Program-made: the position numbers and the translations under genes
The notes under the pieces: model-generated
Told to the model about the DNA's origin: nothing
The model's database searches: none
The model's input: only the letters and a program-made list of their open reading frames with translations
Shown: positions 1-38,164 of the stretch, piece by piece
Numbering within the stretch: position 1 is the first letter of the stretch
Layout of the letters: the number at the start of each line of letters is the position of its first letter
Origin: a virus
Length of the DNA: 42,665 nt
IMG/VR virus record: IMGVR_UViG_3300047441_000014
Span: 1-42,665 of that record
Direction: 5' to 3' (one strand)

Positions 1-127
1 CCCGACCGCCTTCGTGTTCAACCCGGTCGACAACGAGCGGATCGACCTGCTCAAGAACAACAACCTCGACTTCTACTTCGGCGGCCCCACGTCCAACCCG
101 AGCGCTCCCCTGTGGGGCCTGCCCCGG
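1..127. repeat. Terminal overlap copy 1, identical to 42539..42665
   Basis: Manual base-by-base comparison: all 127 nt are identical. The overlap lies inside the capsid ORF and preserves its frame, so the window closes into a 42,538-bp circle. The length is typical of an assembler k-mer overlap. Confidence 0.97.
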
Positions 128-2373: not shown

Positions 2374-3734
2374 TCGACTTCCTCGCCACCCGCCCCCACT
2401 ACGCCGACCACCTCCGGCCGGTGTGGGCCGCGATCCCGGTCGAGCATCGCGGGGTGCTCAGTGACCAGGCCACGGTCGGCGACGGCCCCCTCGTCGTGGC
2501 CAGCTCGACCGACCTGGCCTGGGCCCTCCGTTGTCGTCGGCCCGTCGTCCTCATGGAGCACGGCGCGGGCCAGTCCTACAGCAACCGCCACTCGTCCTAC
2601 GCCGGTGGTCGCGGTCGCGACGGCGTGGCCATGTTCCTCGTCCCATCCGGGGCCGTGGCTGACCGCAACCGCCAGAAGTACCCGCGCATCCCCAACGTCG
2701 TCGTCGGCTCGCCGCGGGTGGACGCGCTCCTAGGCGTTTCCGGTTTCTCGACCGAACCGGCCGGTGTTAAAACCGGAAACCCCGGCTGCCGGACCGTCGC
2801 CGTCTCCTTCCATTGGCGTTGCACCGTCGCCCCCGAGGCCGGGTCCGCCATCGACGACTTCTTCCCCGAGATGCTGGCGACGGCCTGGCAACTCCGCAGG
2901 GAAGGGGTCGACCTCATCGGCCACGCCCACCCGCGGATCGCCGACGAGGCCGAGGCCATGTTCCGAGCCGCGGGCATCGAGTTCATCCCCACCTTCGACG
3001 AGGTCGTGGCCCGGGCCGACCTCTACGCCGTCGACAACTCGTCCACCCTGTTCGAGTTCGCCGCGCTCGACCGGCCGGTCGTCGTCCTCAATGCCCGCGC
3101 CTACCGCCGCAACGTCCACCACGGCCTCCGTTTCTGGTCCGAGGCCGACGTGGGACTACACGCGGAGCCCGGTGAGCTCGCGGCCACGATCCTCGCCGCG
3201 CTGGCCGACCCACCCGACGTGGCCCGGTCCCGCCGTGCGGCCGTCTCCCGGGTTTACGCTGTCCTCGATGGAACGTCCGCCGCTCGGGCCGCCGACGCGA
3301 TCATGAGCCTCCTCGACTCGCGTGCGATCAACGTCCGCCACGGTCGGCGGGTGTGCCTGATCTGCGGCGTGGCGAATCACACGTGCGGGCCCGCCACCAC
3401 CGTCACGGCCGTGGACCTCCCGACCGACGCCCCGAAGGAGTCAGGCATGCTCAAGCGGTACCCGAACCCCGACAGGCCCGGGGCCTTCGTCAAGCTCACC
3501 GAGTCGACCGCCCGCCGGATGGGCCTGGAACCACCCGTGAGCGCCCCAGGATGGCCCGAGACGGTCCCCGGGGCACCGGAAGGGCCCGACCCCCGGGTAT
3601 CGGCCCAGGACGGCCCGTCTGGCGGGCTCCTGGCCGACGGTGAGAAGGACCAGCCCCCGCCCGAACCCAAGGACGACCCGAAGGACAAGGCCCGCCCCGC
3701 CCCCGCCCGGCGCCGTCGAGCGGTGTCGCCGTAG
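2370..3734 (+). CDS. GT-B fold glycosyl-/glycerophosphotransferase-like enzyme (TagF-like signature) with Cys cluster and Pro/Lys-rich tail
   Basis: GTG 2370 overlaps the upstream stop (GTGA). ADLYAVDNSSTLFEFAALDRPVVVLNA resembles the D-x-SS...E...P motif of TagB/TagF-type and other GT-B enzymes. C-terminal CLICGVANHTC is followed by a low-complexity PPPEPKDDPKDKARPAPARRRR tail. Confidence 0.65.
   Translation: MIDFLATRPHYADHLRPVWAAIPVEHRGVLSDQATVGDGPLVVASSTDLAWALRCRRPVVLMEHGAGQSYSNRHSSYAGGRGRDGVAMFLVPSGAVADRNRQKYPRIPNVVVGSPRVDALLGVSGFSTEPAGVKTGNPGCRTVAVSFHWRCTVAPEAGSAIDDFFPEMLATAWQLRREGVDLIGHAHPRIADEAEAMFRAAGIEFIPTFDEVVARADLYAVDNSSTLFEFAALDRPVVVLNARAYRRNVHHGLRFWSEADVGLHAEPGELAATILAALADPPDVARSRRAAVSRVYAVLDGTSAARAADAIMSLLDSRAINVRHGRRVCLICGVANHTCGPATTVTAVDLPTDAPKESGMLKRYPNPDRPGAFVKLTESTARRMGLEPPVSAPGWPETVPGAPEGPDPRVSAQDGPSGGLLADGEKDQPPPEPKDDPKDKARPAPARRRRAVSP
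2736..2780. repeat. 45-bp imperfect palindrome inside the GT-B gene (11-bp perfect arms GTTTCCGGTTT / AAACCGGAAAC, centre CCGGCCGG)
   Basis: Arms 2736-2746 and 2770-2780 are exact reverse complements. The centre is AACCGG|CCGGT at about 2755-2765. The segment is locally A/T-richer than the flanks. Confidence 0.8.
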
Positions 3735-4339
3735 TGCCTGACCTCCTCGCCACGGTCGACGAGCTGCGGCTGTTCATGGACGACCCGACGCTCGACGAGG
3801 AACGGTCGGCGCTCCTGCTGCGCCTGGCCGGGGGTGAGGTCCGGGCCTACACCGGCAACCTGTTCGACTACGTCGAGGGCGAGGTCCGGATCCTCAACGG
3901 CACCGGGACGACGGTGCTCCTCCTCCCCGAGGTTCCCGTCACCGACGTGACCGCCCTGTTCGAGGCCGCGGGCCGCTCGGACGAGGTCGAGCTGGCCGGC
4001 CCCCTCGACACATCGCCCGTGTGGGAATGGGACGAGGACGGCGTCATCGTCCGCATCGACGGGGGCGTCTTCGCCCGTCGCCGACGGTGGTACTCCGTGA
4101 CCAACGACCACGGCTTCGAGGTCAGTCCCGACGAGGTCAAGGCGGTCGTGCTGCGCATGGCGGCCGGCGTCTTCGACAACCCCGACGGCATCCGGCAGGA
4201 GACGCTCGGCAAGTACAGCTACACCGTCGCCGGCGACTCGGCCGGGCTCGGCCTGACCGCCGCCGACCGGCGCCTGCTCGACCCCTACTTCATCTCGTCC
4301 CGGATGCGTGGCGGGACCGCGGTGGGCTCCGGATCGTGA
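3734..4339 (+). CDS. Head-tail adaptor (gp6-like head-tail connector family)
   Basis: GTG 3734 overlaps the upstream TAG. The N-terminus ATVDELRLFMDDPTLDEERSALLLRLAGGEVRAYTGN matches the gp6-like connector pattern. It is placed downstream of the capsid module. Confidence 0.7.
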   Translation: MPDLLATVDELRLFMDDPTLDEERSALLLRLAGGEVRAYTGNLFDYVEGEVRILNGTGTTVLLLPEVPVTDVTALFEAAGRSDEVELAGPLDTSPVWEWDEDGVIVRIDGGVFARRRRWYSVTNDHGFEVSPDEVKAVVLRMAAGVFDNPDGIRQETLGKYSYTVAGDSAGLGLTAADRRLLDPYFISSRMRGGTAVGSGS

Positions 4340-4689
4340 GCTTCCGTCGGCTCCTCGAGCGAACCATCACGATCGTGCCCCGCCTCGTCACCGGCCAGGA
4401 CGCCCGCAACAACGACCTCGTCACCGACGGCACGCCGATCGGCCCCCTCCCCGCCGCCCGCGACCAGTTGGAGGCGTCCGAGAGCGTCGACACCGAGGAC
4501 GCTCAGACCCGGGTGTTCGTCTACATGCTCCCCTGCGTCTTCGGTGGCCAGTCCCTCGTGATCAGCGGCCACGACCGGATCATCGACAACGGCGAGCCGT
4601 TCGAGGTCCGGGGTACGCCCGAGGTGATCAGGCGCCGGCGCGGCGGTCGACCTCACCACATCGAGGCGATCGCCTACCGCCAGGACTGA
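4336..4689 (+). CDS. Head closure / head-tail joining protein
   Basis: GTG 4336 in a GTGA overlap. 117 aa. The RTITIV...TRVFVYMLP...ISGHDRIIDNGEPFEVRG pattern resembles Phage_H_T_join/stopper proteins. Synteny is directly after the adaptor. Confidence 0.6.
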   Translation: MSFRRLLERTITIVPRLVTGQDARNNDLVTDGTPIGPLPAARDQLEASESVDTEDAQTRVFVYMLPCVFGGQSLVISGHDRIIDNGEPFEVRGTPEVIRRRRGGRPHHIEAIAYRQD

Positions 4690-4707: not shown

Positions 4708-4983
4708 ATGACGATTCGCCACGGAACGACGGCGGCTGCCACCCTCGCCTCGGTCGACCTGCCCGCCGACTACGGCTCCGTCGCCGTGCTCCACTACTCG
4801 GGGACGACCGACCTGCTCGTACGGGTCGACGGCGGCGTGCCCGCCCTCACTGGCGACGGGTCCAACGTGACCCGCGTGGTCCCGCCCGGGTCGCGCCGAA
4901 TCATCGACCGGTCCAACCTCGACGGCCCGACCCAAGTCCGGCTCCTCTCCACCGGCGTCGTCGGCTTCGAGATCGAGGTCTGA
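4708..4983 (+). CDS. Hypothetical small beta-rich protein
   Basis: 91-aa ATG ORF in coding-like composition, immediately upstream of the large fibre gene. No recognisable motif. Confidence 0.55.
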   Translation: MTIRHGTTAAATLASVDLPADYGSVAVLHYSGTTDLLVRVDGGVPALTGDGSNVTRVVPPGSRRIIDRSNLDGPTQVRLLSTGVVGFEIEV

Positions 4984-4987
4984 GCGG

Positions 4988-7984
4988 GTGGACAAGTTCG
5001 AGCGGATCGCCATCGTCACCCAGGCGGACGTCGACGCCGACGTGGCCGCGCTGGAGGCGCAGATCGCGGCCGAGGCCGCCACCGCCCGCAATGCCACCAA
5101 CCTCACGTCGGGGACGGTGGCGTTGGCTCGGTTGGCGGGCATCACCGACGGGCAGATCGCCGCGGCCAACAAGGACGGGACCGCCGGCACGCCGAGCCTC
5201 CGCACGCTGGGGACCGGGGCGGCCCAGGCGGCCCAGGGCTCGGCGCTGGCCGCTGAAATCGTCACCGCCCGCAATGCAACCAACCTCACGTCGGGGATCG
5301 TGGCCGACGCCCGGATCGCCTCGACGATCGTACGGGTCGGGGCAGAAAAGGTATTCAGCGAGGACTACCGGCTCGACTCCCTTGGTGCAACTCGGAGCGA
5401 CGACGACACCATTTCGGCTGCCATCGCAGCCGCCTTCCCCTCGGCTGCCAGCGGGATGGTCAAGCGGCTTCTCCTAGGGACAGCGGGCGGTGTGCCAGTT
5501 CCTTATTCGCTGACGACGAACCATGTAATCGGCGCGGCCGGAAGGCGTTACTACGGCGCCCACCTGGCAGGGTTCGGTCGGGGCCTATCGCGTATCGACT
5601 GGAATGGTGATCCGGCATCCGGCCCTTTCACCTTCTTGAACGTCCACATGCCGACCGTGGAAGAATTCTCGATGGGGCCGTTCCCATCGGCGGCGACGGT
5701 GCGGCCAGCCTTCTGGATCAAGTTCGATGTCGAAAACGGCCAGTCCGGGTTCCGAATTCGTACGAAGAACCTGGACTTCTACGATGCCGTCGTCGGCATG
5801 CAGTTGGGCACGGGTCACGCATCGGCGCAGATGAACCAAGGGCTCCATGAGGGACTCGGGTTCCTGGCTTGCGATACGCCCGTCGACTTCAATGCTCCCT
5901 CCGGAGAGATCCAGACTTTCGAGGGTTTCGACATCGACCAGCGCGTGGCCGGTTCGACCTGTTTCCGTGTGCATGCGTCCAAGGGCCTGCACCTGAAGGG
6001 CGGTGAGGTTACTTACCACGCAGCGGGTGACAACTACCTTGTTCGTGCCACGGGGAACTGTTATGGCGGTGGGTTCAAGATAGAAGATGTCCGGCTTGAA
6101 GAAGCATGGTGTATCGCTTCTTTCCTGAATGCTGATGCCGACTATACGAATGGTATCCAATTCCCTCTGGATATCGAAGTCAATAACGTGGTCGTCCAAC
6201 GGTCCAACTACACGCTGACCGATCCGTGCGACGTTGTGCAAACCGCTTATCAGGGAACCGTCTCTTTCAACGAGTGTGAATTCCCGCAACCCAATAGCCG
6301 AGCACGGGTCATCGGTCTAACGAACACGCGGGTGGCCGTCACGGCCTTCAGAGAGTGCAAGATAAACAACGCTGCTGCGTTGACCGATCCGAGCGCACTC
6401 TTCAAGGTGGAGGCCTCGGGCTCGGCGTTCGCCAATGGCGGCCACCTTGGCATCGTCGAGGGATGTGTCGGGATGACCACGACCATTCCCCACACGGTTC
6501 CAGCCAACGGGGCGATCCCCTCGCAGTGGATACACCAGGACCAATCACAGGTGGGGTCCGGCGCCGTGACTCGACTCGTGAACATCGACACCATTGCTCG
6601 CGGTGTCACGATCAAGCCCGTCACGGTCACCTCCGCTGCTCGGCCTGATCCGACGTCCGTCGCGTCCGGTGCGCTCCTGTACGACTCGGACCTGAAGGCT
6701 CCCATTACGACCACCGGCACGGGGTGGCGGGACGCTATCGGTCGTCGTCGGTTCCTTGCCGTGCGGGCGGTGGCCATCGCCGCTCTCCCTGCGGCCACCT
6801 ACGTCAACGGCACCGCCGGCGTAGGGGCGACTCTGACCGCTACCGCCAATGGGGCGCTACCGGCGCAGGACGGCATCACCTTGGTTGTCGCTGACCGGGT
6901 GCTGGTTGCGTCACAAGCGGCGGCTCCACAGAACGGCATCTACGTGGTGACGGCCGTGGGCGACGCGTCGAACCCTTGGGTCCTGACTCGGGCCACGGAT
7001 GCCGACAGTGCGGCCGAGGTCGTGTACGAGGCGCTCGTCCCCGTGACTGCCGGCACCGTCAACGCCGGGAAGCTGTGGCAGTTGTCCACCACCGGAACGA
7101 TCACGATTGGTACGACGGGTCAGGCGTGGCAAGTCGCAGACCCCGTGTCGGGGTCGCAGAAGTCCCGGCCCGATACCTTTGCGGTGGGTAGTTCTACTGT
7201 CACGAAACCCTCGTGGGCGCTTACCGCTGAGATGGCAGTCCAGGGGGCGAGTGGTGGCGGCGGCGGCGGCCGCCGTGGCGCCGCTGGCACGGCGCGCGTC
7301 GGCGGCGGCCCCGGAGCCGCGGGCGGTATGTCTCGACGGCTGGTGAGTGCGGCCGATCTGCCGGGCACCTTCAACGTCACGGTCGGTGCTGGTGGGTCGG
7401 CTGGGGCTGCCGCCACCACCGATGACACGAATGGTGGGAACGGTGGGAACGGTGGAGCGTCCTTCTTCGGTCCCACCATTGGCAGCAACTACGTCGCCGC
7501 CAATGGTGGGACGGGCGGCGTAGGAGGCGGGGCGGGAGCGGGCGGCACGGTAGGTACCGCCGGGGCGGGAATGTTCACTGGCGGGATAGGCGTGGCGGCT
7601 CCGTTGACGGGCGCAGCGGCTGGTGGTCCCGGGACGGGCATCGCCTCGGGCGGCGGGCCAGGCGGCGGAATTACGACTGCTGACGTCGCTAGCGTGGGCG
7701 GGACATCTACCGCCCCGTCGGCTCGTCCCGGAGGTTCCGGCGCTGCGGGTGGCGCTGTCCCCGGCGGGGCCGGTGCGGCTGGGTTCGGGCCAGGGACTAC
7801 CGCCCCAGGGCAAGGCATGGGGGGTGGCGGTGGGGCGGGAAGTGTTGTCGGTACGGGCGGTGCGGGCGGTGCGGGTCATCTGGGCGGTGGCGGCGGCGGT
7901 GGCGGTGCATCTCAGAATGGCAACAACTCGGGACCTGGCGCCGTCGGTGGCGATGGCATCGCAGCGATCACGTGGTTCGGGTGA
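4988..7984 (+). CDS. Large fibre/tailspike-like protein: N-terminal fibre repeats, pectate-lyase-like beta-helix core, glycine-rich C-terminal domain
   Basis: 998 aa, GTG start. The ARNATNLTSG(T/I)VA motif occurs twice. LDSLGATRSDDDTISAAIAAAF resembles the start of Pectate_lyase_3-type tailspikes and is followed by an Asn/Cys/Gly-rich strand-turn pattern. The C-terminus (GGGGGGRRGAAG...GGNGGNGGASFFG...GGGGGGGGAS...ITWFG) is like actinophage glycine-rich minor tail proteins. Confidence 0.8.
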   Translation: MDKFERIAIVTQADVDADVAALEAQIAAEAATARNATNLTSGTVALARLAGITDGQIAAANKDGTAGTPSLRTLGTGAAQAAQGSALAAEIVTARNATNLTSGIVADARIASTIVRVGAEKVFSEDYRLDSLGATRSDDDTISAAIAAAFPSAASGMVKRLLLGTAGGVPVPYSLTTNHVIGAAGRRYYGAHLAGFGRGLSRIDWNGDPASGPFTFLNVHMPTVEEFSMGPFPSAATVRPAFWIKFDVENGQSGFRIRTKNLDFYDAVVGMQLGTGHASAQMNQGLHEGLGFLACDTPVDFNAPSGEIQTFEGFDIDQRVAGSTCFRVHASKGLHLKGGEVTYHAAGDNYLVRATGNCYGGGFKIEDVRLEEAWCIASFLNADADYTNGIQFPLDIEVNNVVVQRSNYTLTDPCDVVQTAYQGTVSFNECEFPQPNSRARVIGLTNTRVAVTAFRECKINNAAALTDPSALFKVEASGSAFANGGHLGIVEGCVGMTTTIPHTVPANGAIPSQWIHQDQSQVGSGAVTRLVNIDTIARGVTIKPVTVTSAARPDPTSVASGALLYDSDLKAPITTTGTGWRDAIGRRRFLAVRAVAIAALPAATYVNGTAGVGATLTATANGALPAQDGITLVVADRVLVASQAAAPQNGIYVVTAVGDASNPWVLTRATDADSAAEVVYEALVPVTAGTVNAGKLWQLSTTGTITIGTTGQAWQVADPVSGSQKSRPDTFAVGSSTVTKPSWALTAEMAVQGASGGGGGGRRGAAGTARVGGGPGAAGGMSRRLVSAADLPGTFNVTVGAGGSAGAAATTDDTNGGNGGNGGASFFGPTIGSNYVAANGGTGGVGGGAGAGGTVGTAGAGMFTGGIGVAAPLTGAAAGGPGTGIASGGGPGGGITTADVASVGGTSTAPSARPGGSGAAGGAVPGGAGAAGFGPGTTAPGQGMGGGGGAGSVVGTGGAGGAGHLGGGGGGGGASQNGNNSGPGAVGGDGIAAITWFG
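5081..5297 (+). repeat. 34-bp direct repeat pair (5081-5114 and 5264-5297, 33/34 identical) encoding the ARNATNLTSG fibre motif, period 183 bp
   Basis: ACCGCCCGCAATGC(C/A)ACCAACCTCACGTCGGGGA was read at both positions. Confidence 0.9.
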
Positions 7985-7990
7985 CCTGCC

Positions 7991-8302
7991 GTGCTCTACA
8001 TCCCTGACCCCGACTACGAGCGCGAGCTCCTCCGCACGTCCGAGGTGGTCGACCTCCTCAAGGGGCTCACGACGGATGGGGCCAATCTCTACGCCGACTC
8101 CGTCCCGGTCGACCAGGGCGACCTCAAGGAGTCCGTCTTCGGCGACGTGGCCATGACCGCGGAAGGGGCCATGGGCCGGGTCGGCGCCACCGATTGGAAG
8201 GCGGCTCTGGTGGAACTCGGCACGTCCAAGCGTTCCCCCGACGGCTCACTGCGCCGCTCCGTCGAGACGCTCGGCCTCACGATCGAAGAAGGTGGTCGGT
8301 GA
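7991..8302 (+). CDS. HK97 gp10-like neck/tail-completion protein
   Basis: GTG start, 103 aa. ADSVPVDQGDLKESV...GRVGATDWKAALVELGTSK matches the gp10-family pattern (aPvdtG.L..si ... y...vE.Gt). Confidence 0.65.
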   Translation: MLYIPDPDYERELLRTSEVVDLLKGLTTDGANLYADSVPVDQGDLKESVFGDVAMTAEGAMGRVGATDWKAALVELGTSKRSPDGSLRRSVETLGLTIEEGGR

Positions 8303-8712
8303 CCCAAGTCGACGCCGAGACGCTCACCGTGCAACACCTTCAGTCCGCCACCACCGTCACCGGCCTCGCCCCCGCCACCGACATCTCGACGAAGCTGCGC
8401 CGCGGATGGGTCGCCGGGGATCCCGCCGTGCGCGTCCGGCGCATCGGTGGGCTGACGACCGAGGACGTGGCCGCCCACCTGGGCCGCTACCGCCTACAGG
8501 TGGAGGCCTTTGCCGGGACGGAGTTGGCCGCCTTCACCCTCGCCTCGGCCGCCTTCGACGCGCTCCGGGCCCTGGCCGGGCAGGCGAACGACTTCGGCGT
8601 GGTCACCGCGGTGGGCAACGACCTCGGCCTGACCAACTCGCCGGACCCCGACTCGGACTCGGCGCGCTACCTGTTCGGCGTGGTCCTCTACGCCCACGCT
8701 CCCATCGCGTAG
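8299..8712 (+). CDS. Tail terminator-like protein
   Basis: GTG 8299 in a GTGA overlap. 137 aa. Sits between the gp10-like gene and a tail-tube gene. The overall pattern (…PAVRVRRIGG…YRLQVEAFAG…ARYLFGVVLY) resembles DUF3168-type terminators. Confidence 0.55.
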   Translation: MTQVDAETLTVQHLQSATTVTGLAPATDISTKLRRGWVAGDPAVRVRRIGGLTTEDVAAHLGRYRLQVEAFAGTELAAFTLASAAFDALRALAGQANDFGVVTAVGNDLGLTNSPDPDSDSARYLFGVVLYAHAPIA

Positions 8713-8722
8713 CCTCTCGCTC

Positions 8723-9349
8723 GTGGACCCACGCGAGATCGTCGTTCCCGGGACCGGCGCTATCTACCTGGCCAACCCGGGCTCGCTCGTCCCCGACGTC
8801 GTCACCACCGCCCTGGGCGCGGAATGGCTCGAGTTGGGCTACGCCACCGAAGACGGCGTGAAGTGGACGGAGACGGCCGACAACGGCGGCGAGTGGGCCT
8901 GGCAGAACCGCCGTCGCCTCCGTGACACCTACGGCCGCCAGTCGGGCGAGGTCGTCTTCACCCTGCTCCAGTGGTCCTCGTTCAACCTCGTGGCGGCCTT
9001 CGGCGGCGGCCACGTCGAGGAGGTCGCGCCGGGCCTGTTCACCTTCACCCCGCCCCGGGGCAACGACCCGAAGATGCTGGCCGTCGAGTGGGCCGACGGC
9101 GCCCGCCACTACCGAGTCGTCTTTCTCCGTGGCTCCGTGTCGCAGGCGGTGGAGGTCAACCTCGTTCGCACCGCGGCGGCCCTCCTGCCCATGACCTTCG
9201 TCGTCTTCGCCGCCGACGAGGATGCGGACCCGTTCCTCTTCCAGACGGACGACCCCGCCTTCGCCCCGGTCGACGTGGGGCTGCTGACCGAAGACGGCAA
9301 GTTCGTCGACACCGAGGCCGACGAGCCCCTTCTGCTGGAGGTCGTGTGA
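8723..9349 (+). CDS. Major tail (tube) protein paralogue 1, with acidic C-terminal extension
   Basis: 208 aa. Shares the blocks WLELGYATEDGVKWT, MLAVEW.DGA and RTAA.LLP.TF with 11417..11986. It carries an extra tail, FQTDDPAFAPVDVGLLTEDGKFVDTEADEPLLLEVV. Confidence 0.75.
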   Translation: MDPREIVVPGTGAIYLANPGSLVPDVVTTALGAEWLELGYATEDGVKWTETADNGGEWAWQNRRRLRDTYGRQSGEVVFTLLQWSSFNLVAAFGGGHVEEVAPGLFTFTPPRGNDPKMLAVEWADGARHYRVVFLRGSVSQAVEVNLVRTAAALLPMTFVVFAADEDADPFLFQTDDPAFAPVDVGLLTEDGKFVDTEADEPLLLEVV

Positions 9350-10860
9350 CCCTCATCGGGGAGCGCATCTCGCAGCTCGGCCCCGCTGGAACGCTCACCG
9401 GCGCCGAGAAGATCCCGATCGTCCAGGCGGGGGTCACCTACCGGTCGACGGTCGGCGCGGTCATCGCCCTCGCCGCGGTCACCCTCGCCCCCATCGCCAA
9501 CCCCACCTTCACCGGCACCGTCACCGGCACGTTCAACATGCCGTCGGGCTCGGCCCTGTCCTACGCCACCACCCCCATCCTCGCCCTGCCCGGCGGGCTG
9601 GCAGCGAACAACATCCGGCTCGGCCAGAACGCCCTCAGCGACCCCGGCTTCACCGGCACCGACACGCTCGCCCTCGCCACCGACGCCCTTCAGTACGTCA
9701 CCGGGGCCACCAGCTTCAACACGGCCGGCGGCAGCCAGAGCCAGAAGAACAACATCGACGGTGAGCGGAATGCCTCCTGGGGCTTCCACTCCCTCCTGCT
9801 CAACCAGCACGGCGACAACAACTGGGCCGGCGGCGTCGGGGCGGGCCGGTCCTTCCTCGGGAGCGAGGGCACCTTCACCGGCCAGGTCTCGAACTACTAC
9901 AACCAGACCGGCCTGTTCCCCGCCACCTACGGCTCGCAGTCGGCGACGAATTGCACGGGCGACTACGTCAACGCCTTCGGCGCCTATGCCGCCTACGGCG
10001 TGAGCCCCGGCGGATCGACCGCCAGCCGTGTCGCCGTGGTGGGGACGTACACGGCCTACACCATCTCCTCCGCGGTGGCGACGGCCGCCCTCGGCGTCGA
10101 GAGCTTCCGGTCCCTCACCACCGGTTCCTACAACTCCGGGCTCGGCGACGGTGCCGGCTACACCGAGACTCCGGCCAACGCCGTCACCACCGCCAGCTTC
10201 TGCACCTACGTGGGCGCTCAGTCGGGGCCGGGCTCCGTGACCCCCAGGGACTACGCCGGTGGCTTCGGATGGCGCAGCCACACGGGCGGCGTGGGAGCCC
10301 TGGCCTTCGGTGCCTTCACCAGCGCCGGTCACAACTACTCCGTGGCCATCGGTACCGCCGACCTCGGCGCGGGGCCTGTCGGCGCCACCACCACGGCCGA
10401 CAACCAAATCCGCCTGGGCACCCCGGCGCACACCACGAGCATCCCCGGTGCCCTGGCCGTCACCGGAGCGGTGTCGACGGGCGTGCTCACCATCCCGGCC
10501 GGGTCCGCCGGCGCGCCGGGCCTAGGCCTGGCCGGGTCGCCGACGACGGGGCTCTACGCGGTGGGCACGGACCGGCTCGGCATCGCCGTGGCCGGAACGC
10601 TGGTGGCCGACTTCCAATCGACGAACATCGCCCTGCGCCAGAACATCCAGTTCACCGACGGGGTCCAGGTCGCGCTCGGCTCGGCCTCCGGGACGATATG
10701 GGGCTCGGCCAACACGCAGAAGCAGGGTTGGTGGGGAGCCGCCGCCGTCGTCCAGCCGAGCGGGATGCCCGCTGCCGCCGGCAACCTGGCCACGGCGGTC
10801 GACCTGGTCAACTACATCCGCGACAACGTCCTGCTCGCCACCGGGCTGGCGACCGTATGA
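9346..10860 (+). CDS. Fibre-like protein (phage fibre N-terminal anchor motif; YadA/Hep_Hag-like Gly/Ala/Thr-rich repeats)
   Basis: GTG 9346 with GGAGG at 9337-9341, overlapping the upstream stop. ISQLGPAGTLTGAEKIPIVQAG and PIANPTFTGTVTG are common tail-fibre N-terminal motifs. NYSVAIGTADLGAG and ADNQIRLGTP resemble adhesin head repeats. Confidence 0.7.
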   Translation: MTLIGERISQLGPAGTLTGAEKIPIVQAGVTYRSTVGAVIALAAVTLAPIANPTFTGTVTGTFNMPSGSALSYATTPILALPGGLAANNIRLGQNALSDPGFTGTDTLALATDALQYVTGATSFNTAGGSQSQKNNIDGERNASWGFHSLLLNQHGDNNWAGGVGAGRSFLGSEGTFTGQVSNYYNQTGLFPATYGSQSATNCTGDYVNAFGAYAAYGVSPGGSTASRVAVVGTYTAYTISSAVATAALGVESFRSLTTGSYNSGLGDGAGYTETPANAVTTASFCTYVGAQSGPGSVTPRDYAGGFGWRSHTGGVGALAFGAFTSAGHNYSVAIGTADLGAGPVGATTTADNQIRLGTPAHTTSIPGALAVTGAVSTGVLTIPAGSAGAPGLGLAGSPTTGLYAVGTDRLGIAVAGTLVADFQSTNIALRQNIQFTDGVQVALGSASGTIWGSANTQKQGWWGAAAVVQPSGMPAAAGNLATAVDLVNYIRDNVLLATGLATV

Positions 10861-10871
10861 GGGGGGCCTGA

Positions 10872-10982
10872 ATGGCCAGGAAGAACGACGGTCACACGCC
10901 CGACGAGACGGGGGTCTGCACCGGCTGCCTGCACGACGAGACGGTGTGGGTCAACCCGTGCCCGGCCAAGAAGGCCAAGTGA
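10872..10982 (+). CDS. Small Cys-containing peptide (36 aa), hypothetical
   Basis: ATG 10872 preceded by GAGGGG. MARKNDGHTPDETGVCTGCLHDETVWVNPCPAKKAK. Stop overlaps the next GTG (GTGA). Below the ORF-track size cut-off. Confidence 0.4.
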   Translation: MARKNDGHTPDETGVCTGCLHDETVWVNPCPAKKAK

Positions 10983-11365
10983 GCCTTCGCCGCGACCACT
11001 CCGAGGTCGTCCTCGATTTCGACGGGAAGCCGATCCCCAACAACATCGGGACCGAAGAGGCGCCGGAGATCGTAGACCTGACCTTCAAGCACCTGGCCAA
11101 CATCTGCCTGTACGGCCTCGACCGGGACGAGCGTCTCGGCCCGGAGAAGAAGTCGAAGCTGTTCCGCCTCGCCCTCAAGTTCCACCGGGGCAAGGTGGCC
11201 AGGATCACCGAGGTCGAGCGCGACCTGCTCAAGGAGCGCGCCGGTGTCCTCCTCGGGCAGATGACCTACGGCCGCTTCTGCGACTGGATCGAAGGCAAGC
11301 CGCAGGTCGTCGGCGACGATGGCGGGTCCGGTGACGATGACGAGGATGACGATGGGTCCGACTAG
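10979..11365 (+). CDS. Hypothetical protein with poly-acidic C-terminus (possible fibre/tail assembly helper)
   Basis: GTG 10979 coupled to the upstream peptide (an alternative GTG at 10946, the ORF-track start, is possible). Ends GDDGGSGDDDEDDDGSD. Lies between a fibre gene and tail-tube paralogue 2. Confidence 0.55.
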   Translation: MSLRRDHSEVVLDFDGKPIPNNIGTEEAPEIVDLTFKHLANICLYGLDRDERLGPEKKSKLFRLALKFHRGKVARITEVERDLLKERAGVLLGQMTYGRFCDWIEGKPQVVGDDGGSGDDDEDDDGSD

Positions 11366-11416
11366 TCCCGCCGCCGTGGTCCTAACCTCGCGGCTACCAG
11401 ACCTCAGGAGGTCACA

Positions 11417-11986
11417 GTGACGAAGACGGCCGACGAGCTAGTCGTCGGAGCCAACGGCTCGATTTACACGGCGCCGGTCGGCTCCACCGTGCCCGCTTCC
11501 ATCGCCACCGCGCTCAACGCCTCGTGGCTCGAACTCGGCTACGCCACGGAGGACGGCGTCAAGTGGACGGACGGCAAGACGGTCCAGCCCATCCGGGCCT
11601 GGCAGTCCTTCTACGACCTGCGCCGGATCATCACCGAGCGCATGGGCTCGCTCGTGTTCAGCCTCATGCAGTGGAACGGCGAGACGGTGAAGCTGGCCTA
11701 CGGCGGCGGCGAGATCACCGAGCCCACGTCGGGCGCCTTCCGCTACACCCCGCCTGCGCCCGAGGAGGTCGACGAGCGCATGCTCGCGGTCGAGTGGGTC
11801 GACGGCGCGTACGACTTCCGCCTGATCTTCCCGAAGGGGATGGTGAGCGAGAACGTCGAGACGACTGTCACCCGAACCGCCGCCGGCCTGCTCCCCATCA
11901 CCTTCGCCCTGCTGGGCGAGGAGGGCGAGGAGCCGTTCATCCTCGACACCAACCACCCCGCGTTCGCGGCCTCGGTCGGCTCGTGA
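11417..11986 (+). CDS. Major tail (tube) protein paralogue 2 (canonical position upstream of chaperones)
   Basis: GTG 11417 preceded by AGGAGG. 189 aa. Conserved blocks shared with 8723..9349. Followed directly by the G/G-T chaperone genes and the tape measure. Confidence 0.8.
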   Translation: MTKTADELVVGANGSIYTAPVGSTVPASIATALNASWLELGYATEDGVKWTDGKTVQPIRAWQSFYDLRRIITERMGSLVFSLMQWNGETVKLAYGGGEITEPTSGAFRYTPPAPEEVDERMLAVEWVDGAYDFRLIFPKGMVSENVETTVTRTAAGLLPITFALLGEEGEEPFILDTNHPAFAASVGS

Positions 11987-12354
11987 GCGACGCGGCGAAG
12001 GACACCAACGTGGTGGAGATCCGCCAGTCCATCGACCTCGACGCCGCCCGGGCCGCCCGCCGGTCCAAGCGCGGCCCTCGGCCTTCCATTCGCTTCCTGG
12101 GCTCGGACCGGCCGCTCCCCTACGAGCTGCCGGCCGAGGTCATCGATATGGTCGGCCAGATCAAGGCGGGCGACTTCACCGCCGTCACCGGGGCGATCCA
12201 CGTGCTCCTCGGCGGGCCGGTCTACGACGCCATCGTCGCCGACGCCAAAGCGGCCAACGACCCGCTCGCGCTCGACGACGTCACGTTCCTGCTGGAGCAG
12301 GCGTTGGAGGTCTACGGGGTGACCCTCCCGGAATCCGCGGCCTCGGAGAGCTAG
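11983..12354 (+). CDS. Tail assembly chaperone (G-type)
   Basis: GTG 11983 in a GTGA overlap. 123 aa. Canonical position between the tube and tape measure genes. Confidence 0.75.
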   Translation: MSDAAKDTNVVEIRQSIDLDAARAARRSKRGPRPSIRFLGSDRPLPYELPAEVIDMVGQIKAGDFTAVTGAIHVLLGGPVYDAIVADAKAANDPLALDDVTFLLEQALEVYGVTLPESAASES

Positions 12355-12785
12355 TCCTAGGACGCTGGGCACTCGTCGAGGCCGACTTCCGCCGCTTCTA
12401 CTCGATCGACCTGGCCGAGGCCGTGTGGGGCGCGGACCCCATCTCCTTCCGGGTGCTCAAGAACCTGACCGTGGGACTGCCGCACGAGAGCCGCACCCTT
12501 CGTGCCCTGGGCGCACCCACGCCGGGAGCGTGGGGCAACGTCGAGGAGCTGTTGGCGGGGATCATCGACGAGCAGCGCGTGAGCAACTTCTACTTCGTGT
12601 CGGCCCACGTCAAGCAGGGCACGCAAGTGCCTGAGCCCAAGCTGGTCAAGCGTCCCACCCTGGTCCCCCGGACCGACGAACCGGGCGGGCAGGATAGGCC
12701 CCGACCCCTCAATGCCGAGGGGCTCGCAACCGCACTCGGAAAGGGCCGCGGAGTCGTGCGCTACACGCCGAAGGCAGGGGACTAG
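11983..12785 (+). CDS. Tail assembly chaperone G-T fusion via -1 programmed frameshift (site near 12300-12352, not pinpointed)
   Basis: The -1 frame is open through the G stop to TAG 12783-12785. It encodes RWALVEADFRRFYSIDLAEAVWGADPISFRVLKNLTVGLPHES. This T-type conserved block starts at about 12363, yet there is no ATG/GTG/TTG in that frame before 12423. Confidence 0.6.
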
Positions 12786-15041
12786 ATGGCGGGCGAACTG
12801 GCGGCCGGGCTTAGGGCTGGCCGCGCCTTCGTCGACATCCTGCCGCGCCTCGCCCCCGGGGCGGCGGCCGCCACCGAGGCGCAGCTCGGCGGCATGTTCT
12901 CCGGGCTCGGGGGCAAGGCCAAGTTGGCTGGCGCCGCCATCGGCGTGGGACTCGCGGCCGGCGCCATCGGGATCGGGGTGGCCGCCTTCAAGATCGGCGA
13001 GAGCTTCGACTCGGCCTTCGACACGATCCGCATCGGCACCGGCAAGACGGGCGCCGCCCTCGATGGCCTACAGGGCTCGTTCAAGAACGTGCTCCGCGCC
13101 GTGCCCGACGACATGGGCCGGGTGTCGACCGCGATCAGTGAGCTGAACCAACGCACCGGCCTGACCGGCCCCGCCCTCGAAGGCCTGTCCACGCAGGTGC
13201 TCACCCTCTCCCGCCTGACCGGCGACGACCTGAGCACGACCATCGAGAAGTCGACCCGTCTCTTCGGCGACTGGGGTATCTCCGTCGACAAGCAGGCGGG
13301 GACGCTCGACTACCTCTTCCGGGTGAGCCAGGCGACCGGCATCGGCGTCGACGACCTGTCGGGCAAGCTGGTGCAGTTCGGCGCCCCCTTGCGCGAACTC
13401 GGCTTCTCGATGGAGCAGAGCGCCGGCCTGCTCGGCAAGTTCGAAGAGGAGGGCGTGAACAGTGAACTGGTGATGGGCTCACTGCGCATCGCGCTGGGCA
13501 AGATGGCCAAGGCGGGGGAGCCGGCTGTCGAGACGCTGGCCCGCACGGTCGACGAGATCAAGAACGCTGGGTCGGCCAGCGAGGCCAACGCGATAGCACT
13601 CGAACTCTTCGGCGCCCGGGCCGGGCCCGATATGGCCGCAGCCATCCGCGAGGGCCGCTTCGAGGTGTCCGACCTGGTCGACACGCTCTCTTCCGGCGGC
13701 GACACTATCATGGGCGTGGCCGGTCAGACCGACGACGTGGCCGAGTCGTTCAAGCGGCTCAAGAACATCCTTCTGGTGGCGGTCGAGCCCATCGCGACCA
13801 AGGTGTTCGACGCCTTCGGCAAGCTGGCCGGGATCGCCACCCAGGTCATCTCGGTCCTCTTCGCAGGGGACTTCACCGGCGGCCCCTTCCAAGAGGACTC
13901 GCCCTTCATCGCCGGGGTGTTCAAGGTCCGCGACGTCTTCCTGAATGACATCCTGCCCGTGCTCAAGCGGGTCGGTGAGTTCCTGTCCGCCAACCTCAAG
14001 CCGATCCTTATCGGGCTCGGCGCAGCCTTCCTGGCCATCACCTCGCCGGTGTCCCTGGTGGTAGCGGTCCTCGTGTGGCTCTACGCCCACTTTGAGGGGA
14101 TCCGTGATGTCGTCAACGCCGTCGTCGGGTTCCTGCTGACCGTGGTGGTTCCGGCCATCATCGCCTTCGCCGGATACGTCGCCGAGCAGTTCGGCCACCT
14201 CGTCGAGTGGGTGCGGGAACACTGGGATGCCATCTCCGAGGCGATAGGCCATGTGGTCGCCGTTATCTCGGCGATCATCTCAGCCTTTGTCGAGGTAGTG
14301 ATGTTTATATGGGACCACTTTGGTCAGACGATTCTTTCGGTGATACGGGCCGTGTGGGAGAACATCATCGCAGTTATCCGATTCGCTGTAGACCTGGTGT
14401 CCGGGATAATCAAGTTTGTGCTCGCGATCATCAATGGGGACTGGGGAGCGGCATGGGACGCTATAGTCGGCATCCTTAGAGGGGCGTGGGAGCTAGTTAA
14501 AACGGTTTTGGGGAATGCCCTCGAAATCGTAAAGTCCTTGGTAAGCGACGCATTTAACGGAGTGAAGAACTTTATCTCCGGTGCCCTCGACGACATCGTA
14601 GGGTTTTTCACCGGGCTTCCGGGCCGGCTGCGTGACGTAGCTGGTGACGTGTTCGGGTTCTTGAAAGAGGCGTTTCGCAAGGCCGTCAACTTCATCATCC
14701 GCGGGTGGAACGCTCTCCAGTTCAAGATCCCCGGCTTCGACCCGCCGGGACCCGGCCCCAAGTTCGGCGGCTTCACCCTCGGGCTGCCCCACATCGACGA
14801 GCTCGCGCTCGGCGGCGACATCACCCGGGCGGGCCTGGCCATCGTCGGTGAGAAGGGGCCCGAGCTGGTCGACCTCGACGCCGGGGCCCGGGTGCTCCCG
14901 CTCGACGTTGCCGCCATGCTGGCCAAGGCCGCCGGCAGTGGAGGCGACGGCCGCAAGTACGAGGTCCACAACACCTTCGAGAGGGCGGGCGAAGTAGACC
15001 CTCTCCTGCTCGCTCGCCAGCTCGCGTGGGTGCTCCCGTAG
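12786..15041 (+). CDS. Tape measure protein
   Basis: 751 aa, directly after the chaperones. Ala/Gly-rich helical N-terminus, a hydrophobic W/I/V-rich repeat region (…WDAISEAIGHVVAVISAIISAF…) and a C-terminal GFDPPGPGPKFGGFTLGLPH segment. Confidence 0.9.
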   Translation: MAGELAAGLRAGRAFVDILPRLAPGAAAATEAQLGGMFSGLGGKAKLAGAAIGVGLAAGAIGIGVAAFKIGESFDSAFDTIRIGTGKTGAALDGLQGSFKNVLRAVPDDMGRVSTAISELNQRTGLTGPALEGLSTQVLTLSRLTGDDLSTTIEKSTRLFGDWGISVDKQAGTLDYLFRVSQATGIGVDDLSGKLVQFGAPLRELGFSMEQSAGLLGKFEEEGVNSELVMGSLRIALGKMAKAGEPAVETLARTVDEIKNAGSASEANAIALELFGARAGPDMAAAIREGRFEVSDLVDTLSSGGDTIMGVAGQTDDVAESFKRLKNILLVAVEPIATKVFDAFGKLAGIATQVISVLFAGDFTGGPFQEDSPFIAGVFKVRDVFLNDILPVLKRVGEFLSANLKPILIGLGAAFLAITSPVSLVVAVLVWLYAHFEGIRDVVNAVVGFLLTVVVPAIIAFAGYVAEQFGHLVEWVREHWDAISEAIGHVVAVISAIISAFVEVVMFIWDHFGQTILSVIRAVWENIIAVIRFAVDLVSGIIKFVLAIINGDWGAAWDAIVGILRGAWELVKTVLGNALEIVKSLVSDAFNGVKNFISGALDDIVGFFTGLPGRLRDVAGDVFGFLKEAFRKAVNFIIRGWNALQFKIPGFDPPGPGPKFGGFTLGLPHIDELALGGDITRAGLAIVGEKGPELVDLDAGARVLPLDVAAMLAKAAGSGGDGRKYEVHNTFERAGEVDPLLLARQLAWVLP

Positions 15042-15845
15042 ATGGCCGCTCCGCTCGTCGTCACGCTCGGGGGGATCACCTTCAACAACGACGCGGCCGA
15101 CACCAACGGCGCCTACTGGTACTGCGGCGAGATCGACGGGTGGGACTCGCCCGCCATGCGGATCAGCCAGCTGGAGCCCACCGGCTACCACGGCGTCGTC
15201 ATCGGCGAGATGCTCTACGGCCCCCGGGCGCTCGTCCTCGGCGGCCCCTCGGGGTCAGCGGGCGAGGGCTCGTGCGTGCTCGGGACCGTGTCGGCGGCGA
15301 ACTACTGGGCCAGCTACTACCGGCTCATGGCGGCTACGCAGACCGTCCCCCTCCTCGGCGCCCGCCCCGCCACCATCGCCCTGGCCGTGGCCGAGCCCAC
15401 GCCCAAGCAGGCGAACGTGCTGCGCGCCGGCCCCGTCCGCATCCGCGAGTTTCGCGGCGCCATCGGGTTCAACTTCGAAGTGCCCCTCATCGCCGCCGAC
15501 CCGCGGAAGCACGCGTTGACGGCCAGCACCTTGGCCGGCGCCGCAGGGTCGGCCGTCAACGGCGGCATCGTCGAGGTCTGGCCGACCCTGACCGTCGTGG
15601 GGCCTGGATCGGCCGACGTGATCGTGACGAACACCACCACCGGCAAGCTCGTGCGGATCCCCGTCACCCTCTCGGGCGGGCAGACCCTCGTGGTCGACTT
15701 CGAGCAGGCCACGGCCACCGTCAACGGCACGCCGGTGGCCGTGCACTCCTCGACGCGCTGGTGGACCCTCCCGCCGGGGACCAGCACGATCACCTACTCC
15801 GGCGGCGGGACGGCGGTCCTGTCGTGGCGCAACGGCTGGGTGTGA
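15042..15845 (+). CDS. Distal tail protein (Dit-like minor tail protein)
   Basis: ATG abuts the tape-measure stop. 267 aa. N-terminus LGGITFNNDA...YWYCGEIDGWDSPAMR is typical of the siphovirus phage-tail-family (Dit). Confidence 0.7.
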   Translation: MAAPLVVTLGGITFNNDAADTNGAYWYCGEIDGWDSPAMRISQLEPTGYHGVVIGEMLYGPRALVLGGPSGSAGEGSCVLGTVSAANYWASYYRLMAATQTVPLLGARPATIALAVAEPTPKQANVLRAGPVRIREFRGAIGFNFEVPLIAADPRKHALTASTLAGAAGSAVNGGIVEVWPTLTVVGPGSADVIVTNTTTGKLVRIPVTLSGGQTLVVDFEQATATVNGTPVAVHSSTRWWTLPPGTSTITYSGGGTAVLSWRNGWV

Positions 15846-15846: not shown

Positions 15847-17400
15847 GTGAAGACGAGACTGGTGGTCGTCGACTTCGACGGCGGCAACCCGGTAGAGCTT
15901 CCCCGCTACCGGGTCACGAACATCCGGTGGAGGTTGAACGCGGCCGAAGCCTGGACCTTCACCATCAACCCGAGGGATCCGAAGGTGGCCGAGATCCCCC
16001 TCGGGCCTCGGGCTCTACGTCAGGTGCAGCTTTGGGTGGACGACCGGTGCGTCGGGTGGGGACACCCGTGGCGCCGGGATCGCACGACCGTGCAGTGCCT
16101 GGGCGACCTGGAGCACTTCAACCACCGCTTCCTCGGGCCGGTCTTCTCGTTCATCGACTCCTACGACGGCTCCTTCGAGCTGAGTCCGGGGCCCCTTCCG
16201 ACGGGGTGGGTCGACGGCGGGCTCGACAACCGAGGGATCACGGCCGACTTCGGGCTGTCCGGCAACCACGCATTCGTGGCCGGGTGCGCCATCACCCCCG
16301 CGGCCGACCAGTGGATCGCCCCCTTCTTCCACATCGACCGCTCCTACCCCTTCCGGCTGTCCGTCGTGGCCTACTACCACATCGGGTGGAACACGGGCTA
16401 CGGCGAGACGCACAAGGACCGGGGCGTCTACCTGGTGCTCCACGACTACGCCACCGGAGACGTGCTGGATCAGACGAACGGCGCCCTCGACCTCAAGGAG
16501 GAGCCCCTCGGGGTCTGGCGACGCACGGAGGCGAGCATCAACATCCCCGCCGGGGAGTTCGAGCTCGAGGTCCGCCTCTACGGGCCCGCTGGCGCGACGC
16601 TGCATTGGGATCAGGTCGACGTCGTGCTCGAGCAACGGACGCACTCCACCGAGGACGAGGACGCGTCGGCCCTGATCCGCCGGCTCGTCGACTACTGCGT
16701 GGGCAATGCCCTGGGCGGCGGCCCCTCGGGCCGGGACAGCGACTACGTCCTGAAGGGCGACCTCGTCATCTATTGGGACCCGGCCAACTCGACCAGCGTC
16801 GGACGGATCGGGGCCCGCTCGTACGACCACGGCGACGGCGCCAGCTTCTGGTCCTGCCTCAAGGAGTTCTTCGAGCGCGACCTGTGCGACTTCGAGATCA
16901 CCTACAACGCCGGGGGCACACAGAAGAAGTTCAGCCTCTTCGCTCCCCGCAAGGGCACCCCCCGCCCGACGTGGACCTTCACGAAGGATGCCGGCGCGGG
17001 CAACATCGTCGACTACGACTACCTCGTCGACGGCATGCAGGTAGCCACGCAGCCCCGGGTCCGGGGCCGGGGCAAGGGTGGAGCGGAGAACGGCCTGGCT
17101 CCGTGGGACAGTGGCGACGGCAACTACGTCGAGGCGATGATCTCGCCCACCGGGGACGAGGACATCAACGCCCTCAATGGCCTGGCCGCGGCCGAGAAGG
17201 CCCGCCGGGGCGACGGTGTGCAGATCACGTGGATCGAGGTACGGGGAGCGACCGCCCTGCTGGCCGCCGGGCTCACCACCGGCGACACCATCGCCCTGCG
17301 CATCGTCGACGACTGGATCGACGTGGCCGCCACCTTCCGTGTGGTCGAGATCGAGGTCGCCAACCCGGACGCCGACACCATGAAGCTCACCCTCAACTAG
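15847..17400 (+). CDS. Tal-like minor tail protein with central jelly-roll/CBM-like insertion
   Basis: GTG 15847. 517 aa. The position after Dit and the N-terminus VVDFDGGNPVELPRYRVTNIRWRLN fit the tail-tip (prophage tail endopeptidase-like) family. Confidence 0.6.
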   Translation: MKTRLVVVDFDGGNPVELPRYRVTNIRWRLNAAEAWTFTINPRDPKVAEIPLGPRALRQVQLWVDDRCVGWGHPWRRDRTTVQCLGDLEHFNHRFLGPVFSFIDSYDGSFELSPGPLPTGWVDGGLDNRGITADFGLSGNHAFVAGCAITPAADQWIAPFFHIDRSYPFRLSVVAYYHIGWNTGYGETHKDRGVYLVLHDYATGDVLDQTNGALDLKEEPLGVWRRTEASINIPAGEFELEVRLYGPAGATLHWDQVDVVLEQRTHSTEDEDASALIRRLVDYCVGNALGGGPSGRDSDYVLKGDLVIYWDPANSTSVGRIGARSYDHGDGASFWSCLKEFFERDLCDFEITYNAGGTQKKFSLFAPRKGTPRPTWTFTKDAGAGNIVDYDYLVDGMQVATQPRVRGRGKGGAENGLAPWDSGDGNYVEAMISPTGDEDINALNGLAAAEKARRGDGVQITWIEVRGATALLAAGLTTGDTIALRIVDDWIDVAATFRVVEIEVANPDADTMKLTLN

Positions 17401-17919: not shown

Positions 17920-17941
17920 CCGAGGCTCTACGCTTGGACCC

Positions 17942-38162: not shown

Positions 38163-38164
38163 GG

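Follow-up and report, generated by a model that had tools for sequence, protein, structure and literature searches.

Why does a phage with a well-conserved tail-tube gene carry a second, divergent copy of it, with a fibre gene directly behind that copy? The question is raised by IMG/VR virus record IMGVR_UViG_3300047441_000014, whose 42,665 nucleotides (nt) were analysed as one stretch (hereafter the window). Two tail-tube genes, termed P1 (8723-9349) and P2 (11417-11986), enclose a gene for a fibre of 504 amino acids (aa; fib504) and two small genes for proteins of 36 and 128 aa (Table 1). A sequence-only reading of the window had proposed either a hetero-oligomeric tube or a specialised tube ring that displays side fibres. 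Judged from sequence, the most likely role of the extra tube copy is to attach further fibres to the tail, and I would give a probability of roughly 0.55 to the more specific reading that P1 is a specialised, low-abundance tube paralogue that plugs fib504 onto the tail.

The two tube genes are indeed paralogues, as had been read from the letters alone. P1 and P2 were identical at 85 of 179 residues (47%; BLASTP E 3e-54), somewhat above the by-eye estimate of about 40%, and both matched the Pfam family PF25681 (Phage_TTP_17), with 98.8 bits for P1 and 135.9 bits for P2 (cut-off 27). Both also matched PHROG 117 (major tail protein); the PHROGs found for the pair were 117 and 476, not 2645, and a profile of the PF25681 family recovered Bxb1 gp19 from the PDB (E 8e-9). 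An AlphaFold2 model of P1 reached a predicted local distance difference test score (pLDDT) of 90 and a predicted template modelling score of 0.80, and showed the elements by which a tail-tube fold is recognised, namely a hairpin of strands 41-58 and 65-81 and a helix at 86-92. The best Foldseek matches of this model were Bxb1 gp19, Douge gp13, Mycofy1, and lambda gpV, with E-values down to 2.5e-9. The core of P1 (8723-9268, residues 1-182) is thus predicted to be a complete tail-tube fold, and it retained all family-invariant residues without large insertions or deletions.

The sequence blocks that had first suggested the relationship, an identical run of 15 residues (WLELGYATEDGVKWT) together with MLAVEW.DGA and RTAA.LLP.TF, were all present in both proteins. 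No motif in this family is better conserved than the 15-residue block (W[TV][ED]LGY[AV]TEDGV[TS]WT), which is not specific to P1 and P2. Five of its 15 codons differed synonymously between the two genes, a proportion that also holds outside the block; this normal synonymous divergence argues that the block was kept by selection, and it rules out a recent gene conversion within these 15 residues.

The two copies were far from equivalent. P2 showed 70-76% identity to the single tube proteins of the three contigs with the closest backbones (L016, L018, and L020), so that no other protein of the structural module was as well conserved in this comparison, and its position in front of the chaperone genes G and G-T, also noted in the sequence-only reading, was borne out by chaperone matches of the downstream ORF. 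From these sequence comparisons, P2 is taken to be the canonical major tail-tube protein that makes up the bulk of the tube. P1, on the other hand, had no match anywhere above 49% identity; its mean identity was ~44% with the P2 clade and 39% with the remaining family members. Among 64 conserved family positions, 15 were altered in P1 and only 2 in P2. The changes in P1 clustered in the N-loop, at the tip of the beta2-beta3 hairpin (WQSFY to WQNRR), in loop 110-116, which carries a two-residue deletion, and at residues 162-170, while its core strands were conserved. The N-loop and loop beta2-beta3 are the main inter-ring contacts of tube proteins (PMC8718954), and P1 would therefore have kept a ring-forming core but altered its stacking surfaces. 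Its sequence marks it as something other than a redundant copy of P2.

Where P1 came from is less clear-cut. It sat on a long branch near the P2 clade in a neighbour-joining tree, with bootstrap values of at most 32%, and was equally distant (about 44%) from all members of that clade. A search for a special relationship between P1 and P2 yielded one shared rare residue and the P2-specific state at 2 of 10 sites, none of it beyond chance. A recent local duplication of P2 was considered as the origin of P1 and found no support, the relationship tests being negative or underpowered; an old duplication followed by acceleration and a capture from an unsampled phage both fit, and the sequence data do not separate them. 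The terminator gene gave no signal of co-evolution with P1: its identity to the gene preceding the single tube gene in L016, L018, and L020 was 50-54%, the same as that of neighbouring connector genes.

What sets P1 apart as a candidate fibre carrier is its C-terminus. The tube core is followed by an acidic extension, as previously described, although it spans ~26 aa rather than the 35-45 aa first estimated. It contains three pseudo-repeats (LLTEDG, FVDTEA, and LLLEVV) and was modelled with a pLDDT of only 60-72, so that it is predicted to be disordered, which fits a peptide that folds on binding. The fibre encoded immediately downstream begins with a mini-domain (residues ~8-46) holding the motif LTGAEKIPIVQAG at residues 17-29 (nt 9394-9432). 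Two further loci (L024 and L025) were found separately through fibre homology, and in both the gene directly upstream of the fibre ended in a similar way: ...LVAVATEDKKLLVDDIGAFLIEE in L024 and ...YYLQENGTDKYLLEDGTGYYTL in L025, compared with ...GLLTEDGKFVDTEADEPLLLEVV in P1.

This pairing was evaluated on a larger scale by scanning IMG/VR. As the alignment of the fibre N-domain was too diverse, a degenerate DNA pattern for LTGxExxPxVQxG was used, which retrieved 60 loci (L029-L088). The motif lay at residue 6-18 of its open reading frame (ORF) in all 60, while the ORFs that were not cut by a contig end ranged from ~120 to ~1200 aa; the constant N-terminal position of the motif and the variable ORF length argue for a conserved N-terminal attachment domain carried by variable fibres. 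The ORF upstream ended in a tail of the P1 type in 14 of 53 scorable loci using a fixed pattern, with three more recognised by eye, compared with 3 of 2128 other open frames of the same loci (0.14%; Fisher p 3e-21). After clustering into independent lineages, the tail was found upstream in 11 of 30. These tails usually consisted of two to four short repeats of the form hydrophobic-hydrophobic-x-acidic. P1 ends in LLTEDGKFVDTEADEPLLLEVV and was the only real ORF of the window to pass the survey pattern, and the motif of fib504 likewise falls within its first ~30 residues. The docking pair, an 'LLxEDG..LLxE' tail and an 'LTGxExxPxVQxG' N-domain, was defined in this analysis and is not a curated family; no description of such a pairing was found in the searched literature, where a search for the tail motif returned unrelated papers only.

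The proteins that carried the tail were of several kinds. They included a tail terminator in L079 (PHROG 4204, E 4e-13), a gpJ-like hub in L035 (Phage-tail_3), and small proteins of 50-260 aa, which suggests that the tail is a portable add-on to scaffold proteins of the virion. Examples from the survey can be seen near 2230-2267 of L079, 8209-8246 of L035, and 1691-1728 of L065. A separate locus, L028, carried three tandem fibre genes of ~600 aa (6385-11791) that have the same N-terminal attachment motif and, judged from their sequences, resemble a set of alternative or stacked fibres for one type of socket; the 211-aa gene upstream of them had no tail of the docking type.

The signals for translation were also uneven across the locus. 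When 24 starts were scored for their duplex energy with the anti-Shine-Dalgarno (anti-SD) sequence, the GTG start of P1 was the weakest of all at +0.6 kcal/mol, as opposed to -11.0 for P2, -10.0 for fib504, -11.2 for the 36-aa ORF, and -8.9 for the terminator. The terminator stop (TAG, 8710-8712) lies 10 nt ahead of the P1 start, and the start of fib504 overlaps the stop of P1 by GTGA. I infer from these sequences that re-initiation yields P1 at about the level of the terminator, while the fibre and the bulk tube protein are translated efficiently. This combination of a weak P1 start with strong sites for fib504 and P2 is in keeping with a minority subunit, in which several fibre chains go with each copy of P1. 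A fusion of P1 to the fibre by frameshifting was considered and rejected: the frame of the fibre is open upstream at 8926-9346, and this stretch holds no canonical slippery heptamer (X XXY YYZ). Nor is either tube protein the frameshifted form of the other, as P1 and P2 are two separate genes 2.7 kb apart.

The expression signals and the altered loops bear directly on the first alternative, a mixed tube in which P1 and P2 polymerise together over the full length of the tail, as mixed hexamers or interspersed rings, so that fibres would stand all along it like the bristles of a bottle brush. P1 keeps the tube fold, the invariant residues, and an overall length free of large indels, no sequence feature marks it as a ring for one end of the tube, and the actinophages discussed below, whose clusters have two or three genes for a major tail protein, could work in this way. 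A bulk component would be needed in roughly >=100 copies, however, and it is P2 that has a near-perfect Shine-Dalgarno (SD) sequence while P1 has none; furthermore, the inter-ring contact elements of P1 have changed, which argues against free interchange with P2. A mixed tube is therefore considered unlikely, although it survives better than the other alternatives. Of the two options raised in the sequence-only reading, the tube unit that displays fibres thus gained support from the co-occurrence of the tail with the fibre N-domain, and the hetero-oligomeric bulk tube became less likely.

The block that contains P1 could be delimited by comparison with relatives. These were gathered by pattern scans of IMG/VR and of metagenomes, by tblastn against isolated phages, by contig look-ups, and by a profile search of 5.8 billion proteins, which returned 284 members of the PF25681 family, of which 120 were listed. 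Every relative detected (~20 contigs, L002-L014 and L016-L022, plus 9 isolated phage records) had one P2-like tube gene directly between terminator and chaperones, and none of the ~20 contigs contained a homologue of P1, its tail, fib504, the 36-aa ORF, or the acidic protein. A single-protein scan of IMG/VR revealed no relative, a scan of genome contigs gave 109 pattern matches of which none was confirmed, and a metagenome scan found 4 loci, each with one tube gene. The closest backbones were those of L016, L018, and L020, with 45-76% identity to genes of the window, and they share portal, protease, capsid, glycosyltransferase, adaptor, connector, terminator, tube, chaperone, and tape-measure genes; in relatives, too, the chaperone homologues come after the tube gene.

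As all relatives carry a single P2-like tube gene at this site, the four genes from P1 to the acidic protein are an insertion relative to them. The comparison with relatives lacking 8723-11365, which had been suggested as a check, was uniform in this respect, as all contigs and isolated phage records lack the block. The earlier picture of an inserted duplicated module was thus half right: the insertion was borne out, while a local duplication of P2 was not shown, given that P1 is equidistant from the P2 clade. The junctions can still be recognised. The leader upstream of P2 contains a relic of the terminator-stop context, TAACCTCGCGGCT (11384-11396) compared with TAGCCTCGCGCTC in relatives, and a strong SD sequence, AGGAGGT, at 11406-11412, and a copy of the first 13 nt of the ancestral leader lies between the terminator stop and the P1 start. 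From the leader copy in front of P1 and the leader relic in front of P2, the insert is placed at 8723 to ~11383. The G+C content at third codon positions (GC3) is 0.91-0.95 across the insert and 0.93 in P1, matching the genome, which argues that the cassette is not a recent arrival.

The window also contains a third, partial tube copy that was missed at first reading. It is a 3' remnant of the P1 type (17940-18067, ..LLPMTFAVFADED..) located after the collar-domain tail gene and ahead of the lysis genes, and 17950-17981 matched P1 9181-9212 at 30 of 32 bases, a match that none of 100 shuffles reached. The remnant is 84% identical to P1 9171-9219 and 67% to the equivalent part of P2; it forms a 41-codon ORF with a GC3 of 0.88 and no good ribosome-binding site, and was absent from the relatives examined.

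An insertion with scars invites the explanation that the locus is recombination debris, that is, a cassette captured from a phage whose only tube protein bore the fibre tail, with a P1 that is poorly expressed and dispensable or decaying and a fibre that is inert or attached in another way. P1 may lack an SD sequence simply because it sits directly at the recombination junction, it is a singleton on a long branch with no close relative, and the same genome holds the dead fragment at 17940-18067 as well as a second, clearly foreign fibre insertion (4708-7984, GC3 0.74). Against decay stand the intact P1 ORF, with a GC3 like that of the genome, its full set of invariant residues and confident fold prediction, and the tight coupling of the four genes through GTGA overlaps and good SD sequences for fib504 and the 36-aa ORF; the composition of the cassette likewise speaks against a recent capture. 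On balance, debris is an improbable explanation, and somewhat less favoured than the mixed tube.

The remaining genes of the cassette follow the order that had been described, three coupled genes behind P1: fib504, the cysteine-containing 36-aa ORF with its SD sequence, and the 128-aa gene, whose most likely start overlaps the stop of the 36-aa ORF by GTGA. Beyond its N-terminal mini-domain, fib504 has an adhesin-like middle part rich in Gly, Ala, Thr, and Ser, a conserved beta module at ~380-425, and a C-terminal helix module. Its model had a mean pLDDT of 50 and was confident only for residues 15-45, 380-425, and 480-500, the first of which formed a small hairpin-plus-helix domain (pLDDT 64-83). 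No close homologue of fib504 was found, and tblastn against phages gave no match to it. An exhaustive search returned 515 partial matches, mostly to residues 365-502 (the repeat-rich part at 365-450 and the C-terminal module at 432-502); the N-terminus was common to P0208, P0263, and P0138, and residues 304-360 resembled a YadA_head-positive fibre located after the Tal gene in relative L011. With these partial matches and the YadA_head-like middle segment, the label 'adhesin-like fibre' given to fib504 is reasonable. The 36-aa protein has three cysteines (CxxC...C), and the 128-aa protein, possibly a fibre assembly factor, has the acidic C-terminal tail DDGGSGDDDEDDDGSD. Both genes were also called in an independent annotation of an identical contig (L023, Logan). 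Neither fib504 nor the two small proteins had a significant match in Pfam, PHROGs, or NCBIfam, and the small proteins had no homologue in any library or relative searched, including by tblastn of the 128-aa protein against relatives.

It is very improbable that P1 acts outside the tail, as a decoy or substitute against defences that sense tube proteins or as a scaffold ring for fibre assembly that is not kept in the particle: its Foldseek neighbours do include the DSR2-bound SPR tube protein (8ygc, 8ygo), tube proteins can trigger defence, and two small orphan genes sit in the cassette, but such a role would leave the docking-type tail and the translational coupling to the fibre gene unexplained, and although the changed parts of P1 are surface loops and not its core, nothing ties these changes to a defence system.

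The reading of P1 as a dedicated fibre mount can then be put together as follows. A cassette of P1, fib504, the 36-aa ORF, and the 128-aa gene went into the leader that separated the terminator gene from the tube gene already present. P1, with its full tube fold, would sit in a tube built from P2 and, being made by re-initiation just past the terminator stop, would form one or a few rings or contribute a few subunits. Its tail would act as a docking peptide, the plug, and the N-domain of fib504 as the socket, with physical binding presumed from their pairing in genomes. Each three-repeat tail may hold one fibre trimer, which would amount to ~6 P1 and 18 fibre chains per ring. A position of this ring next to the terminator is weakly favoured by the gene order and by the coupling to the terminator gene, P1 adjoining the terminator and standing four genes away from the chaperones while P2 adjoins the chaperones and not the terminator; a distal or scattered position is also conceivable. 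In the survey, the plug on a terminator in L079 would correspond to neck-level fibres of this kind, and the plug on a hub in L035 to distal ones.

Several observations weigh against assigning this role to P1. None of the 120 other tube proteins listed among the 284 PF25681 matches has a tail of the P1 type, and in 19 of 30 fibre lineages the upstream gene has no such tail, so that the pairing is frequent and not obligatory. The tail motif was defined by eye before counting, and the enrichment rests on that definition. A missing SD sequence is no proof of low expression, as re-initiation can be efficient, and with its inter-ring loops remodelled P1 may have lost the ability to stack in a tube altogether. 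Finally, P1 and fib504 are known from a single genome, represented by three 100% identical assemblies, which leave no variation for a dN/dS estimate and no population or comparative signal of selection on either gene.

A tube paralogue that serves as a fibre mount would have a precedent in phage T5. There, p140 is a duplicate of the tube gene that forms one ring, and its C-terminus holds a collar (p132) that anchors the L-shaped side fibres pb1; the same authors named T4 gp54 as an extra ring of tube-like protein (PMC10038345). Because the C-terminus of a tube duplicate holds the side-fibre collar, p140 is regarded as the mechanistic precedent for P1, and in both phages a tube paralogue stands beside a major tube protein, P2 being the conserved major form here. 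The differences are nevertheless substantial. T5 p140 and pb6 share 9% identity as opposed to 47% for P1 and P2, the gene for p140 lies among those of the baseplate and its product adjoins the distal tail protein while the P1 gene lies next to the terminator, and in T5 a separate Ig-like collar protein is placed between ring and fibre, whereas P1 itself appears to carry the docking peptide. The two systems have no sequence relationship.

Other tube-protein pairs are made differently. The phage SPP1 pair gp17.1/gp17.1*, which Auzat and colleagues are said to have described in 2008 in a paper cited by PMC8718954, reportedly mixes a minority tube subunit that has a C-terminal addition with the plain major subunit. 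The Tsh/Tsh-L proteins of Listeria phage PSA are a pair of the same kind. Both pairs arise from one gene by programmed frameshifting and add an Ig/FN3 domain, unlike P1 and P2, which are two genes, with no slippery heptamer over the part of P1 in which the fibre frame is open.

For the fibre side of the arrangement, the closest parallel was PhicrAss001, whose trimeric fibre gp22 is attached by its extreme N-terminus to the docking hubs THA/THB on the tail barrel (PMC10172136). Residues 27-58 of gp22 aligned with the profile of the fibre N-domain at E 0.25, which is below significance and can serve as a lead only. The docking hub of this podovirus-like crassvirus is a separate A2B trimer, whereas the proposed docking tail is part of the tube protein here.

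Two major tail protein genes have been reported for the actinophage clusters AM, AU, AW, BI, CC, DJ, and EL (PMC11080557, PMC10652937, bioRxiv 10.1101/2020.01.10.891226). In Microbacterium phage Damascus (L015, OQ995438) I found three tube paralogues within 5785-11250, gp17, gp19, and gp20, which are 42-51% identical and all belong to PHROG 2645; gp19 is a 609-aa protein with a 400-aa C-terminal appendage, and a fibre-like Gly_rich_2 protein, gp21, follows. The genome announcement of Damascus mentions only two of the three. As in the window, the tube paralogues of these clusters lie between terminator and tape measure with other genes in between. They have no PF25681 match, unlike P1 and P2, and their genomes carry a fused capsid-protease gene, whereas protease and capsid are separate genes in the window; their arrangement is conserved across whole clusters, while that of the window is unique among ~20 relatives; and in Damascus the appendage is fused to the tube domain, in contrast to the separate fibre and docking tail found here. 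On sequence grounds the window is thus analogous to the multi-tube actinophage clusters and not a member of them. No description of the function of the extra tube copies in these clusters was found in the searched literature.

The window represents a complete phage genome of ~42.5 kb with 69% G+C from a circular assembly. Its ends form an exact terminal direct repeat of 127 nt (1-127 = 42539-42665) and cut the capsid gene in two, and the structural genes are all on the + strand (Table 1). Two other assemblies (L001 and L023) were 100% identical to the window; Logan assembly SRR26077934 and a short JGI contig contain the identical sequence. When 7900-12800 was compared with phages by megablast there was no match, so that no isolated phage is close at the DNA level, and a scan for promoters and transcription terminators gave nothing above chance.

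Two neighbouring features deserve mention. Glycosyltransferase or methyltransferase genes occupy the same position between capsid and adaptor in relatives L016-L022, which suggests, from gene content, virion glycosylation in this phage group. The stretch at 4708-7984 is a second insertion relative to the nearest-relative backbone and lies between the head-closure and gp10-like connector genes. Its GC3 of 0.74 compared with ~0.93 elsewhere, and a local GC down to 0.58, indicate that this DNA was recently acquired. The PHROG matches of the block include 'head decoration' and 'tail fiber' families; its 998-aa protein has a Gly-rich C-terminus, and the core of this protein had no significant match in Pfam, PHROGs, or NCBIfam.

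Table 1. Coordinates of the genes and sequence features discussed in the text (positions are those of the window).
Feature	Position	Strand	Remarks
Major capsid	41559-end plus 14-343	+	
Glycosyltransferases, two	488-1819 and 2325-3734	+	Gly_transf_sug/GT2-like and Glyphos_transf
Head-tail adaptor	3734-4339	+	
Head-closure-like gene	4336-4689	+	
91-aa ORF and 998-aa fibre-like protein	4708-7984	+	
gp10-like gene	7991-8302	+	
Tail terminator	8299-8712	+	PHROG 123 tail terminator, E 8.9e-14; stop TAG 8710-8712
P1 (tube paralogue 1)	8723-9349	+	208 aa
P1 C-terminal extension VDVGLLTEDGKFVDTEADEPLLLEVV and stop	9269-9349	+	residues 183-208, ~26 aa, net charge about -7
fib504 (504-aa fibre)	9346-10860	+	
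36-aa ORF	10872-10982	+	ATG start
Acidic-tailed protein, 128 aa	10979-11365	+	most likely GTG start
Tube-gene leader	11366-11416	+	aligns with terminator-to-tube intergenic regions of L016, L018, L020
P2 (tube paralogue 2)	11417-11986	+	189 aa
Tail assembly chaperone G	11983-12354	+	
Chaperone frameshift-extension ORF	12423-12785	+	PHROG 3656, 393, 5813 tail assembly chaperone
Tape measure	12786-15041	+	
Dit	15042-15845	+	
Tal-like protein	15847-17400	+	
Collar-domain protein	17401-17919	+	followed by lysis genes
P1-type tube gene 3' remnant	17940-18067	+	between collar-domain tail gene and lysis genes
Terminase	34135-36291	+	
Portal	37946-40207	+	
Protease	40389-41558	+	separate from capsid gene

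The spread of the tail over diverse carriers, and its pairing with the fibre N-domain in unrelated phages, allow for a more general, and more tentative, proposal, which I regard as a real possibility while not backing it as strongly as the role of P1 itself. LLxEDG..LLxE repeats and the ISxLPxAxxLTGxExxPxVQxG domain may constitute a portable plug and socket, with a peptide that can be appended to any exposed scaffold protein of the virion. Wherever the peptide is appended, one more fibre trimer would find a place to attach, perhaps with a repeat for each of its chains, and the phage studied here would owe its additional fibres to the acquisition of a second tube gene equipped with the plug. 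If this holds, the pairing would provide a sequence rule that predicts from a genome which virion protein bears a given fibre, and a small tag that could be transferred to couple fibres or other cargo to tails. The place and manner in which siphophages mount accessory fibres decide which targets are adsorbed to, and are also a lever for the engineering of host range. Should P1 work as proposed, a phage could acquire a new fibre set without touching its baseplate, by means of a second tube gene with a 26-residue peptide, and, if the plug and socket are real, the same logic could explain the multiple major tail protein genes of the actinophage clusters.

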